From: an uncultured Alphaproteobacteria bacterium
GTDB lineage: Bacteria > Pseudomonadota > Alphaproteobacteria > CAAHEQ01 > UBA3637
Direction of reading: 5' to 3'
NCBI GenBank assembly: GCA_944392145.1
Contig: CALXVS010000002.1
Coordinates: 6,525 to 70,524, forward strand
Length of the DNA stretch: 64,000 nt
A program made the position numbers. Positions within the stretch are counted from its first letter, which is position 1. The number at the start of each line of letters is the position of its first letter. Of this stretch, positions 12,001 to 18,000 are shown in pieces.

Positions 12001-15000
12001 ATTTCGGTCGGGACGATAAATATCTGTCTTATTGTTACTGCTTTTTTCGTCTGTATATATTCCATAAGTCAGCGAAGCTGCCTTTACCCTGATTGTACCG
12101 CCAAAAGCGTTATACCAAAATTTACCAAGATTGCTTTCTCCGCTTGTATCACCGGAGGATGTATCATCAGATGTGTTGCTGTTTGAGTCGCTGAAACATG
12201 TTTTTTGCAAAATGTCATTTTCACAAATGGTATCCATATCCAGTTTGGTAAAGTCACGATTCCATGTGTATAAATCGGTAACACCGCGAATGATTTCCTG
12301 AACCTCTGATTGCACGGTTGATGCACGAAAAAGGTTCAGTTGATATGATAAGGCCGAGGCACCACCAACCGTAATGACCGAAATGATGGCAATGACGGCT
12401 AACATTTCCAGCATTGATCGCCCGGTTTCATGTGTTTGTATCATTAAAAAATCCTTTCTGTGGTCAATTTCGGTTTATTTTGATGTAAAAATTAATTTAT
12501 CTCTAAACAAGCAAGACGATTTACCGCATCGGCAGCCGGGTTGTTGGTTGGGTGCCTGAACAGCAACAGAATACCAATCAGTATTACACATCAGCTGACG
12601 GGTTACTTTTTCGGGTAAATTGGTATATTCTACTTGAATGGCGCCGTCGTTCATAGTGACAATAATGTCTCCCCCGAAATCGTTTGTCCAGTGGTTACTA
12701 CCGGTACATTTTTTAGACAGAATTTTATTCTCACAAATAGTTTTTTGAATTTCGGCGGTTGAAGTTGGAAGGGTTCGGTGGAATGAATACAAATCAAAAA
12801 CACCGCGAACGATTTCTTCCACTTCATACTGAATGGTGGCGGCACGGTATTTGGTTCTGACCAAATCCACAACGCTTAATCCTGAAATGGTTATCACTGC
12901 AATCAACGAGATAACCCCCAACATTTCAATTAAAGAACGTCCCGATTCGTGTGTGCCGCGCATAACGGTTTTTATCCTTTCATAAAAGATATGTTTATTA
13001 TACTGTGAAATCTGTTTTAAAGCAAGGTGCTTTTTATATAAATTTTAAGTGCTTGCACAAAAAGAAAAAACATGATATGTTTCTTTCAAGATGATGATTT
13101 GTAATCAAAAAGAATTAGAAGCGGTTTGCCGGCGTTTTGCGGCGCACCCTTTTGTAACAGTGGATACCGAATTTGTTCGTGAAAAAAGCTATTATCCAAG
13201 ATTATGCCTGATTCAGTTGGCTTCACCCGATGAAGCGGTGTGCATTGATCCGACGGTATCGGATTTTGATTGGGCACCGTTACGGGCGTTGATGCAAAAT
13301 GAATCGGTGGTGAAAGTGTTTCATGCCTGTCGTCAAGATATGGAAATCTTTTTTCTTCAGGCCGGTGTTATCCCGACACCGTTATTTGATACACAGGTTG
13401 CCGCGATGGCATTGGGCTTTGGTGACAGTGTGGGGTATCAGGCGGTTGTTAAGGCTGTCACCGGTGTGTCGCTGGATAAAAGCATGCGTTACACGGATTG
13501 GCAAAAGCGACCTTTAAGTGCGCAACAGGTTCAATATGCCCTGTGTGATGTAACGTATTTAAGGGATGTGTATCTGTGTTTTAAAGACAAATTGGCGCAA
13601 ACCGGTCGTGTAGCGTGGATCGCCGATGAAATGGCGGTATTGCAGAACCCAAAAACATATCAAACGAATCCGGAAACAGTTTGGATGCGTTTTAAAATGC
13701 CGTTGAATGAAGGCTTACAATTATATCTGTTTTCTAAATTGTGCGCCTGGCGCGAAAAAAAAGCTCAAGCATCAGATAAGCCGCGTCGCCATATCATGAA
13801 AGATGAGGCACTTCAGGAATTGGCTATTACCCCTCCGACAAAAGCAGATGATTTTGAACATATGCGTCATTTATCGCAAGGCTTTTCCAAAACGGCATGG
13901 GCCGAAGAACTGTTGGATTTATTAACACGCGAAACAGCAGTTTTTGAAACACAAATGAAAAAGTTTACATATCCCGAAACCCACCATGTGCCAATCAAAA
14001 AGAAAACATTGCATGATTTGATGCATTTGCTGGTGGATTTGGTGTGCGAAAAAAATAAAGTTGCACCAAAACTGTTGGCTTCATCCGCCGATGTCACAGA
14101 TTTTGTATGCGATCGCCCCTGCCGTTTTTTGGAAGGTTGGCGTTATGAGTTATTGGGACACCTGGCCCAAGATTTAAAGGCCGGTAAACTTAATTTTACC
14201 TATAACCCTGCCAAAGATACGGTTGATTTCGGGGAATTGGAGTAGTTAAAACAGGGCTTAAAAAAGCCCTGTTTATAAATTACAACAGATCATTTAATAA
14301 ATTCATACATTTGATTTTTTGTTGCATATTTGCTCGTCCATAGACATTAAGTGTAAACGAAACATTTTTATGACCCAAAATTTCGGATAGAGATTTAACA
14401 TCAAACTCCGGAATTTCTATGGCTCGAACTGCGAAAGTATGCCGAATTTCATGAAACTTAACACTTCTTAGATTATGTTTTTTTAGAAAACGTGCAAAAA
14501 ATTGTCTATATGTTCTTGGCTCTGTCGGTTTCATTCGTCCTGTTAAAAAATATTGGTTAGGATTGTCAGTATAATATTTTTTTATGATGTTGATTAAAAG
14601 TGATGGAAGAGGAATCGTTCGACACGAACTTGCTGTTTTGGGAGCTCCAATATAAACATATGAAGTTCCTTTAATTTTATCATATATCCGCTGAACAGTT
14701 CTTTGAATGTTTATTGTTTTATCAATAATTGAAATATCTCTCATTTGCAAACCGCATAACTCTCCAATACGAATACCAGTAAATAATGCAACTAAAATAC
14801 CAGCGGTTCTACGATTCATTTTCATGTAGATACATTGGATCAAAGCAAGCTCTTCGTCTTTTGATAATGAAATGACCTTTTTTAGTCCTAAATCTTTTGG
14901 GTATTCAATTAAATCCCAGTTTAACATCGGATATTATTAAAATCTGTCCAAAAGAAAGCCAGACCATATAACAACTCTTTATCAGAGTTTGCAAAATATT

Positions 15001-18000
15001 TGGTATCAACACCGTTTGAAACAATAAATGTTTGAATATAGTGATAGAGGCCATTGTATGAATGCTTTTTATAGCGCATTACTTGATTAACAGCTTCTTT
15101 AATATCAATACCTCTGCGTTTTAATTCGATTTGTAGTAAAGGTAGACCGTTGACAAGAATCGTTACATCATAACGATTAACATATTTTCTAAGGACAGTT
15201 GTTTGATGGGTAACTTGAAAAATATTTTTTGTATGGTCTTCATCTAGAAGTGATAAATAAATCTTTTAACCATCATCTCTTTCAAGAATAAATTTATCTC
15301 TGAGAATTTTGGCACTTTGGAAAACACTTTTACCTAAAAGGTGATTAAAAACACGCTCCCATTCTTTGGGGGTTAGGGGCTTCTCTATTTTAGAGGCGTT
15401 AAACAAAACAAATTGCTTTTTAAAATTTTCTTCTAATTCTTCATAACTTTCAATAGTCACAGGAGAATAGCCTTGATTAGCTAATTGTTCTATCAATAAA
15501 TTTTCTAATTCTGCTTCACTTTGATACGCCATTTTATTTCCTAATTTTTATACTGAACTTCACTTTACACCGGAGTTTTGATGCGTTCAATATCGGCGCC
15601 GACGGCTTTTAATTTTTCTTCCAATCGGTAATAACCGCGATCAATGTGGTAAATACGTTTGACAATAGTTTCACCCCGGGCGGCCAAAGCGGCCAAAACC
15701 AATGCCACGCCGCCGCGTAAATCCGATGCCATGACCGTGGTGCCGGATAAATGGGAAACCCCTTTAATTAAAACAGATTGATTGTTTAAAATTTGGATAT
15801 GTGCCCCCATTCGTTGCAATTCGGGGATATGCATCAACCTGTTTTCAAACAGGTTTTCGGTGGTAATGGATTCGCCGGCGGCAATGCTGAATAAGGTTGT
15901 AATTAACGCTTGGGCATCCGTCGGGAAGCCGGGATATTCGCTGGTTGTGACGGGAACGGCGGTAAGGGTGGCATTTGTGGCGTCTACGTCAAACCCGTCG
16001 GCATGGGGCGTAAATACAATCCCGCTTTTTTTGATGACATCTGTGATGGCCTCTATTAAATCCAATCGGCCACCTTTTAAAAATAAACGTCCCTTTGTGA
16101 CGGCGGCGGCCACGATGAACGAGGCTGTTTCAATCCGGTCCGACACCACTGTATGTGTGACACCCCCTAATCGGCTGACCCCTGTCACGGAAAGCACTTT
16201 CGGTTCTTTCCAATGGATATTGGCCCCCATTTTTTTTAAGGCTTCAATTAAATCCAATACTTCGGGTTCCATGGCGGCGTTGTGAATGACGGTTGTGCCG
16301 GGGGTTAAAACGGCAGCCATAAGGGTGTTGTGTGTGGCACCGACCGATACGCGACGGAAAAAGATGTCTGCGGCATGTAAGGGACCGTGTGCCACGACAT
16401 ACCCGTTTTCAATTTTAATGTGTGCCCCCATTTCTTCCAACGCTTTTAAATAAATATCCACCGGCCGTGCACCGATGGTGCATCCGCCGGGCAGGGAAAC
16501 GGTTGCGTGGCCGAAACGAGCCAACAACGGCCCCAATACCCAAAATGAAGCCCGCATTTTGGAAACGAAATCATAAATGGCAATGGTATTGTTAACGGCA
16601 TTGGCGGCGATTGTCAGGGTATCATCTTGTTCTTGAACCGTTGCACCGAAGCTTTTTAACAGCTGTGTCATCACGCACACATCCGACAACGGCGAAACGT
16701 TGTTTAAAATAACCGGTTGATCGGTTAAAAGAGCGGCCGCCATAATCGGTAACACGGCGTTTTTCGCGCCTTTAATTTCCACGGTGCCGAACAGCTTTTT
16801 GCCGCCGTTTATTTTGAATGCATACATGTTTTTTGTCGCCTTTGTTCCTGTTGACGTTTTCTTAAATTTAAATTGGCGCGCAGTGCGGCTGCTTCACGCA
16901 CAAATTTGTCCAACCGTTTATTTTTTAAATGCAAATTTTCACTTGCCTGACGGCGCAGCGTTTCTTCGGTGGTTTCGGTCATTGCTTCCTCGGACTTTGT
17001 AAAATAAAAGTTGCCGGCCCGTTGTTTTCAATACGCACCAGCATGTCGGCACCAAAGATACCGTTTTTGACGGGAATTTGCAAGTCTTTTAGGGCCTTTG
17101 AAAAAAATAAATAAAGCCGGTTGGCGACATCGGGATTTCCCGCTTTTGTAAAAGAAGGGCGTCGTCCGGTATCACAATCGGCCAACAAAGTGAATTGCGA
17201 CACCACCAAAACCGCCCCGCCGATATCGGTGACGGACCGATTCATTTTACCGGCGTCATCTTCAAAAATACGTAATGTTGCAACTTTATGTGCCAACCAC
17301 AGGGCATCGGCTTCTGTATCCGTTTCTTCAATCCCCAAAAACAGGCATACCCCTGTTCCAATCGCAGAAACGGGTTCATTATTCACGCTGACACTGGCGG
17401 ATAAAACACGTTGAATAACGGCTTTCATAATAAATCTTGATCATTTTTAAGTCGGTTTTGCATACATTTTAACAAAAAAAGAAAATTTTGTCAAAAAAAT
17501 CATTTGGGGACTTGTTTTTTTTAGCAAAAAAAGGTAATTTATAAGACATTTAATAAGGGTAAGAAGTTTATGCGTTTTTTATCTATGTTGGTCAGCCTGG
17601 CTTTTTTCGGGGCATTTTTTGCCATGATCGGTCTTTTTTTGATCGTCATGCATTATTCCGTCGGATTGCCGGATTATCATCAATTGGCCGTTTATCAACC
17701 GCAAGTGACAAGCCGCGTGTATGCCAGTGACGGATCTTTGGTGGCCGAATATGCAACCGAAAAACGCAGTTTTGTGCCCGTTGAAAATATCCCCGAAATG
17801 TTAAAAAACGCGTTTATCGCAGCCGAAGATAAAAATTTTTACAATCATGGCGGGATTGATTTTTTCGGTTTGACCCGGGCGGTGATAACAAACATTAAAA
17901 ATTTCGGCACGGGGCGGCGGGCGATTGGCGCCTCAACCATTACACAGCAAGTTGCCAAAAATTTCCTTTTAACCTCGGAGCGGTCATTGTCGCGCAAAAT

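Follow-up and report, generated by a model that had tools for sequence, protein, structure and literature searches.

A probable deletion scar of a phase-variable type I restriction-modification locus between rnd and murA in an uncultured gut alphaproteobacterium

A 64,000-nucleotide stretch of DNA from an uncultured Alphaproteobacteria bacterium (GenBank assembly GCA_944392145.1, contig CALXVS010000002.1, positions 6,525 to 70,524 of the forward strand), here called the window and numbered from its first letter, carries two gene fragments between the convergent genes rnd and murA: the interrupted 5' end of a type I restriction subunit gene (hsdR') and the 3' end of a tyrosine recombinase gene ('int). 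The explanation we favor, with a probability of about 0.85, is that a single illegitimate deletion of a horizontally acquired, phase-variable type I restriction-modification (R-M) locus left a non-functional scar between rnd and murA.

On this explanation, the ancestor of this gut alphaproteobacterium would have held an AT-rich hsdR-hsdM-hsdS-inverted hsdS'-int locus at that place. One deletion, with its ends at the short repeat AATAAT(A)TCCG, would have fused hsdR at codon 202 with int at codon 103 and taken out ~6.4-9.3 kb comprising hsdM, every hsdS copy, the motor domains of HsdR and the DNA-binding domain of the recombinase. The nuclease-domain stub would later have gained a nonsense codon in the lineage of the window and lost its start codon in another, and the recombinase, out of frame, would have been left with neither core-binding domain nor target sites. 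The scar would be one of at least two alleles of the slot, presumably swapped between strains by homologous recombination in murA and rnd, and in the window lineage it would afterwards have been patched by gene conversion from another hsdR allele.

Anatomy of the two gene fragments

Both fragments lie in a 1329-nt cassette (14237-15565) that fills the gap between rnd and murA and has 31% GC, versus 42-47% in the flanks. Its limits were set by comparison with a contig of the same species (L098; L and P numbers denote the loci or contigs and the proteins used for comparison), whose flanks are 99.1-99.4% identical to those of the window. Homology to L098 stops at 14236, just past rnd codon 382, and is back at 15566, the second base of the murA stop codon, so the cassette includes the final three codons of rnd (two sense codons and the stop) and the third base of the murA stop.

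The hsdR' fragment is encoded on the minus strand. Its ATG is at 15532, with AGGA 9-12 nt upstream, and from there to 14928 one continuous frame is broken only by a TAA at codon 89. Codons 1-88 with this TAA (15266-15532) match positions 1-80 of Pfam HSDR_N (E = 1.4e-3), and codons 90-202, in the same frame (14928-15265), match positions 105-195 (PF04313, E = 1.9e-29), the PD-(D/E)xK nuclease part of the domain. Compared with residues 1-202 of intact HsdR proteins of 920 amino acids (aa), the frame showed 87% protein identity to L092 (tblastn of these residues, aligned to 15532-14927) and 96% to L111. These matches bear out the original prediction, made by eye from the DNA, that minus-strand translation from 15532 to 14921 gives the first ~200 residues of an HsdR subunit, and the in-frame TAA it had reported at 15266-15268 is present. 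The frame change that it placed within hsdR is instead the deletion junction itself, at 14928/14927.

The match to NCBIfam TIGR00348 covers positions 2-190 with 95.6 bits, below the full-length cut-off of 284.55. The fragment has the N-terminal HSDR_N domain of an HsdR subunit and lacks an uninterrupted reading frame. The stub stops at codon 202 of 920, and the SF2 translocase/helicase (ResIII/DEAD and helicase C) and C-terminal assembly domains of its intact relatives are absent. As had been proposed, no hsdM, hsdS or HsdR helicase domain remains: a tblastn search (E ≤ 1), with full-length HsdR among the queries, found no other hsdR, hsdM or hsdS sequence in the 64-kb window beyond chance matches, and the hsdM and hsdS partners of a type I R-M system are thus missing from it.

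Past the junction the HsdR frame runs for two junction-derived codons (C, stop) and ends in the TAA at 14921-14923, which overlaps the ATG of the recombinase (cgATGTTAA). The latter opens a 215-aa open reading frame (ORF; 14280-14927, minus strand) that matches Pfam PF00589 (Phage_integrase, E = 1.4e-21) and corresponds to residues 103-317, the catalytic domain, of a 317-aa tyrosine recombinase. Identity to the 317-aa recombinases was 90-96% over 100% of its length (96% to P0001) and reached 97.7% for P0260. These relatives carry an N-terminal PF14659 domain in residues 1-102, which is deleted from the window ORF, the DNA upstream being hsdR sequence. Both the loss of the N-terminal domain and the catalytic R, HxxR and Y had been recognized in the original prediction. 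Its view that the first 17 residues of the ORF are still HsdR-like did not hold, since in alignment with full-length recombinases they are residues 103-119 of the recombinase.

All catalytic positions of a tyrosine recombinase (R, K, HxxR, H/W and the nucleophile Y) are present, and the core-binding (SAM-like) domain is absent. The R, K, HxxR, H and Y of the close homologue P0260 align with those of Tn1549 Int, and the window ORF shares the motifs TGIRIGE, PKT, HEIRH, GHKN and NVYG. The protein belongs to the same catalytic fold family (R-K-HxxR-H-Y) as Tn916/Tn1549-type and Xer-like recombinases. Tn1549 Int (PDB 6EMY) is the closest solved structure, although the match reaches only E = 4e-13; unlike that enzyme, the recombinase is by its context not an element integrase, and the window copy lacks the entire N-terminal DNA-binding part. 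Matches to NCBIfam Xer models were weak and below cut-off. No Shine-Dalgarno sequence was found ahead of the 'int ATG.

The parent locus and the deletion junction

In intact relatives, the genes from which the two fragments derive stand at opposite ends of one module, in the order hsdR-hsdM-hsdS-inverted hsdS'-int. L001 and L005 have hsdR (932 aa), hsdM (524 aa), hsdS, an inverted hsdS' and int (317 aa). In L092/L093 the order is DarT-Macro-hsdR (920 aa)-hsdM-hsdS-inverted hsdS'-int-serine recombinase, where DarT-Macro represents DarTG and the serine recombinase is a large one, and in L191 hsdR (920 aa) and hsdM are followed by four hsdS genes in alternating orientation, a 300-aa gene and int. 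The opposed hsdS copies are linked by inverted repeats of 58-123 nt with 85-93% identity (L005). At least two opposed hsdS genes sharing inverted repeats, with an adjacent invertase, were found in L001, L005 and L191, and are not found in the window. The parent is therefore a phase-variable type I R-M system of the "epigenetic inverton" kind, of which the window holds a derivative and not a member. The recombinase belongs to the R-M locus as its hsdS-shuffling invertase and is no integrase of an integrative element.

Type I epigenetic invertons with an adjacent tyrosine invertase are a known kind of system (PMC7672463, PMC7096588, PMC7394358). The layout of the intact relatives is exactly that of SpnD39III/cod-ivr with PsrA/CreX in S. 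pneumoniae and of Bfa9343I in B. fragilis, where bfiA lies outside the inverton: besides hsdR and hsdM there is one hsdS that is expressed, inverted repeats link it with one to three partial or silent hsdS copies in the opposite orientation, and a tyrosine recombinase gene closes the locus (PMC7672463, PMC7096588, PMC4948785, PMC7394358). Unlike these systems, the window keeps only HsdR residues 1-202 and the catalytic domain of the recombinase, without hsdM, hsdS or inverted repeats. It carries an ordinary genomic scar of a known kind of system, which leaves the understanding of R-M biology unchanged.

The int end of the intact module abuts phage tail genes in L006, L091, L095, L192 and L193 (Phage-tail_3/GpJ-like, NLPC_P60, DUF1833 and tape measure genes are among these neighbors), and HsdR is encoded on ten IMG/VR contigs predicted to be viral (L101-L110). 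On this evidence the intact module seems to be common prophage cargo in gut bacteria.

The deletion junction (...AATAATATCCG/ATGTTAAAC..., 14923-14938, minus strand) has its break between 14928 and 14927, where codon 202 of hsdR meets codon 103 of int one base out of frame. At the breakpoint, the nearest intact hsdR (L111, 89% nucleotide identity) reads TTTAATAATATCCG-TATT, and the nearest intact int (L191, 90% nucleotide identity, the locus that encodes P0260) reads CAAATAAT-TCCG-GTGTTAAAC. In the three-row alignment, the hsdR row from L111 is ...GACTTTAATAATATCCG TATTACG..., the int row from L191 is ...GAGCAAATAAT-TCCG GTGTTAAACTGGGAT... and the window row is ...GATTTTAATAATATCCG ATGTTAAACTGGGAT.... 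Both parents contain TCCG without a mismatch, and over AATAAT(A)TCCG they agree at 10 of 11 positions. Compared with loci of the L001 or L092 type, the window would lack about 6.4 kb, and compared with L191 about 9.3 kb.

Of the hsdR-hsdM-hsdS-inverted hsdS'-int locus only the two ends are left in the window, which supports the earlier suggestion of a scar of a lost R-M island. Two other origins had been offered with it. The first, an integrative element, is not supported, given the identity of the recombinase as an hsdS invertase, truncated in the window, and the lack of flanking repeats. A repeat search across 13900-15900 found no att-like direct repeats flanking the cassette: the pairs in this interval were short, imperfect and ascribable to chance, none had its copies at 14237 and 15565, and the only matches of 12-13 nt, themselves imperfect, have their second copy ~200 nt inside murA.

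The second, a rearrangement made by the recombinase of the locus, whether programmed or aberrant, has in its favor that the parent was an inverton with an active-type recombinase, and excision-type rearrangements are known at other phase-variable type I loci (PMC6265443). We nevertheless regard it as very improbable. The endpoints lie within hsdR and within the recombinase's own gene, at a short microhomology and off the hsdS inverted repeats; the perfectly shared sequence is only 4 nt long; and the event destroyed the recombinase gene, with the join out of frame. Endpoints away from the inverted repeats argue for an illegitimate deletion not driven by the recombinase, and a RecA-independent, microhomology-mediated (slippage-type) event would be its likely mechanism.

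A second lineage, with a recombinase 82% identical to that of the window, provides a comparable case. P0278 (376 aa, on a Logan contig of 1885 nt) is an in-frame fusion of HsdR residues 1-64, HsdR residues 424-518 and Int residues 95-317. Its parts share 97-98% identity with intact loci from the human gut, L131 and L138 among them, its joins fall at short shared motifs (HNYL; K-codon runs), and its int breakpoint is 7 codons from that of the window. The P0278/P0017 cluster also holds truncated recombinase calls of 178-225 aa. Internal deletions that spare the 5' end of hsdR and the 3' end of int are thus recurrent, and the simplest reason is that larger deletions would damage the neighbors, here murA and rnd.

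Strain variation, decay and the mosaic tract

The identical 215-aa ORF was found in the context dtd-murA-88 aa-215 aa-rnd in at least nine contigs. Three of these, from three samples and from both ENA and Logan assemblies (L008-L010), are 100% identical to the window over 10-20 kb, and two more diverged contigs, L099 (99.1% identical) and L100 (99.3%), share its junction. An assembly artefact, which the original prediction had named among the things that would refute it, would find some encouragement in the metagenome-type source, in the tendency of inverton loci to break assemblies and in three contigs (L006, L007, L095) that end just upstream of int. A chimera of assembly or binning can nonetheless be given next to no weight. 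The same junction recurs in independent assemblies and in ~1% diverged strains; the contigs that carry it are 11-77 kb long, derive from no fewer than five samples and from different assemblers, and have the same single-copy housekeeping genes on its flanks. Strain-specific single-nucleotide polymorphisms (SNPs) occur on either side of it, and the 4 nt shared at the join are far below any assembler k-mer.

The strains that share the junction differ in the lesions of hsdR'. Codon 89 is TAA in the window and L099, CAA (Gln) in L100 and P0270-P0272, and AAA (Lys) in the intact L092. P0271 is a fully open 203-aa hsdR' ORF with the same junction-derived C-terminal end and CAA in place of the window's TAA, and in L100 the hsdR' start codon has mutated from ATG to ATA. 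These lesions are therefore younger than the deletion, and at least two independent events have inactivated hsdR'. In the window, L099 and L100 alike, 'int keeps an open frame of 215 aa. A shorter call (P0265, 198 aa) that was considered as a decayed 'int was rejected: the 215-aa frame of L099 is open, and the short call reflects the gene caller's choice of a GTG start created by a SNP at 14874.

Since the stub is interrupted and without motor and assembly domains, and 'int is without core-binding domain, ribosome-binding site and target repeats, both fragments would be non-functional pseudogene fragments. The annotated 88-aa "hypothetical protein" and 215-aa "site-specific integrase" are accordingly better read as probable pseudogene fragments of one deleted locus than as a marker of a mobile element.

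We consider it unlikely that the truncated recombinase is instead a functional gene that has been retained, on its own or along with the HsdR stub, and that acts in trans with another inverton elsewhere in the genome or has a dominant-negative or regulatory role. Such a role would fit an ORF that stays intact in the window, L099 and L100 with all its catalytic residues, whereas hsdR' has been disabled in two different ways. Translational coupling would be possible, as the 'int start and the stop of the frame before it overlap (ATGTTAA); the independent P0278 lineage has also retained the recombinase from residue 95 onward, joined to parts of HsdR; and the mosaic tract described below shows that the window lineage has met a related hsdR allele. 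The deleted core-binding domain, though, is needed by tyrosine recombinases for DNA binding and synapse, no recombination targets are left in the window, and the ATG has no Shine-Dalgarno sequence. L099 and L100 differ in 'int by just two changes, both of them nonsynonymous, and the synonymous excess on the window branch is accounted for by imported tracts. As to the recurrence in P0278, any deletion confined between the essential genes murA and rnd must spare the ends of the first and last genes, so it needs no selection. That selection rather than accident keeps a recombinase without its core-binding domain, which could then act in trans on a genomic inverton or on incoming phage-borne copies of the locus, is in our estimate distinctly unlikely.

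Some observations weigh against the deletion scar as we describe it. The exact parental hsdR and int are unsampled (nearest relatives 89-90% at the nucleotide level), so the 4-nt microhomology is reconstructed and not observed. No strain with an intact inverton locus at the murA-rnd site was found among the Genome Taxonomy Database (GTDB) species representatives, the nearest RNase D homologues or the context of the closest recombinase, P0260; the intact loci that were found sit in prophage or other contexts, and the deletion may predate the arrival of the fragment between murA and rnd or have occurred in another host. In all strains examined 'int has an open frame and its full set of catalytic residues. 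Finally, the scar differs between L099 and L100 at 0.56% of sites, against ~2% at synonymous sites of the flanks, so that 'int may retain some function or constraint. The dead hsdR' has diverged just as little, which suggests that the cassette has a shallower genealogy, not that constraint or selection is at work. The selection test on 'int drew on three strains, with too few changes and with imported tracts as a confounder.

Such a tract was found in hsdR' at 14942-15074 (minus strand), where 133 nt of the window carry 23 differences from L099/L100, 21 of them synonymous and 1 nonsynonymous. Across the whole cassette the window differs from L100 in 38 places, these 23 included (binomial P = 3e-14 for such clustering), and the proportion of synonymous differences (pS) is 0.76 in the tract versus 0.02-0.05 elsewhere. 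The L099/L100 allele of the tract matches L111 at 119 of 133 positions, as closely as the rest of the gene, and the window allele matches L111 at 113 of 133 and L122/L123 at 115 of 133, being relatively closer to other lineages. Since the tract of L099/L100 is collinear with L111 and that of the window is not, the comparison identifies the window as the importing lineage, and the tract as a gene-conversion patch from another hsdR allele, one with a history of purifying selection. Around the junction, 56 nt show no difference between the strains, which fits a donor with an intact gene whose homology to the scar ended at the junction. No donor of 14942-15074 was present among the 90 hsdR loci fetched, the best match being 86-87%. 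In 'int, a few synonymous differences lie in clusters at 14844-14885 and 14502-14508 and may likewise have been imported. The scar would thus record the loss of a phage-borne phase-variable system followed by gene conversion by a related allele.

The murA-rnd slot, transcription signals and neighboring genes

The gap between murA and rnd is occupied by different R-M genes in close relatives. In L098 (11147-18499) it holds an intact type I system, hsdM (502 aa)-Fic/RhuM (327 aa)-151 aa-hsdS (378 aa)-hsdR (1018 aa). The hsdR stop of this system overlaps the rnd stop by 4 nt, and the Fic/RhuM gene within it may encode an accessory toxin or a module for abortive infection. An origin of the scar from an L098-type system was rejected, as the cassettes share no nucleotide homology and the HSDR_N match is only 37% over 79 aa. 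In L096/L097, from a sister species (RNase D 70% identical), the slot contains a resolvase gene (209 aa), a type ISP R-M enzyme of 1620 aa, a 269-aa gene and a PIF1-like fragment. In L096 the slot spans 11150-18092; the resolvase is a small serine recombinase (resolvase plus HTH_7), the type ISP enzyme has Mrr_cat_2, helicase, Eco57I methylase and Type_ISP_C domains, and the PIF1-like fragment is 121 aa long.

All three cassettes are AT-rich relative to their own flanks, and the murA-rnd gap is an R-M hotspot across species. More distant gut alphaproteobacterial metagenome-assembled genomes (MAGs) have murA and rnd 25-230 nt apart, or separated by ComM-like and ankyrin-repeat genes. The C-terminus of RNase D is specific to the cassette type, with alleles ending in GELE, as in the window, or GEN; of 15 RNase D variants of the species, 6 have the GELE end of the scar allele and 9 the GEN end of the L098 allele. 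With the scar, the type I system with Fic/RhuM and the type ISP enzyme of the sister species as alternatives at this site, strains probably differ here in restriction barrier and methylome.

The pattern resembles the R-M-linked insertion/substitution polymorphisms described by Furuta, Abe and Kobayashi in 2010 (PMC2853133), in which differing R-M cassettes occupy an identical position between conserved genes of close genomes, without recognizable att sites or transposase. It differs from them in that one allele is a decayed remnant and in that each boundary falls exactly on the stop codon of a housekeeping gene, the two genes being convergent.

A GC-rich 11-bp hairpin (AAACAGGGCTT/AAGCCCTGTTT, 14249-14274), 100% complementary and with T-runs on both strands, lies within the variable cassette, 5 nt past the 'int stop. 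Its folding free energies (dG) are -17.9 and -21.7 kcal/mol (z -5.7 and -7.0), and in intact loci the corresponding place after int is taken by hairpins unrelated to it. The hairpin is most likely a bidirectional terminator, predicted to serve both read-through transcription of murA-hsdR'-'int and rnd. The fragment had been described as abutting the rnd terminator. By its position the hairpin is the recombinase gene's own terminator, and only as a second role can it also terminate rnd.

The 32-nt spacer between the murA stop and the hsdR' ATG (15533-15564, minus strand) has a dG of -1.6, no better than shuffled sequences, and is not homologous to the regions upstream of intact loci. Promoter and terminator scans gave no match between murA and hsdR', with fewer promoter-like sites than in shuffles. 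An unstructured spacer of this length without a promoter match points to the remnant being transcribed, probably, by read-through from murA. The Rfam scan of 13900-15900 gave only two sub-threshold chance matches.

The left flank is the conserved rnd gene for RNase D (13091-14245, plus strand; Pfam DNA_pol_A_exo1 and HRDC), and the right flank is the conserved murA (15565-16827, minus strand; Pfam EPSP_synthase, E = 1e-91), which is co-directional with the remnant. A 57-aa ORF without a Pfam match (16809-16982, minus strand) overlaps the dtd stop and the murA start. It was called in every related contig (L008, L009, L096, L098, L099 and L100), and its position is thus conserved. On the other side, two adjacent small ORFs on the minus strand (11812-12444 and 12475-12963; 210 and 162 aa) have type IV pilin-like N-termini (...GRS(M/L)(L/I)EML(A/G)VI...), and this pair adjoins rnd across related MAGs. 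The 162-aa member has the highest nonsynonymous divergence (pN) between strains among the flanking genes, 1.2-1.5% versus 0.1-0.2%. Elsewhere in the window, 1-kb bins at 28000-30000, 34000-35000, 38000-42000 and 54000-56000 have 35-38% GC, compared with the usual 40-48%, and may be further foreign segments.

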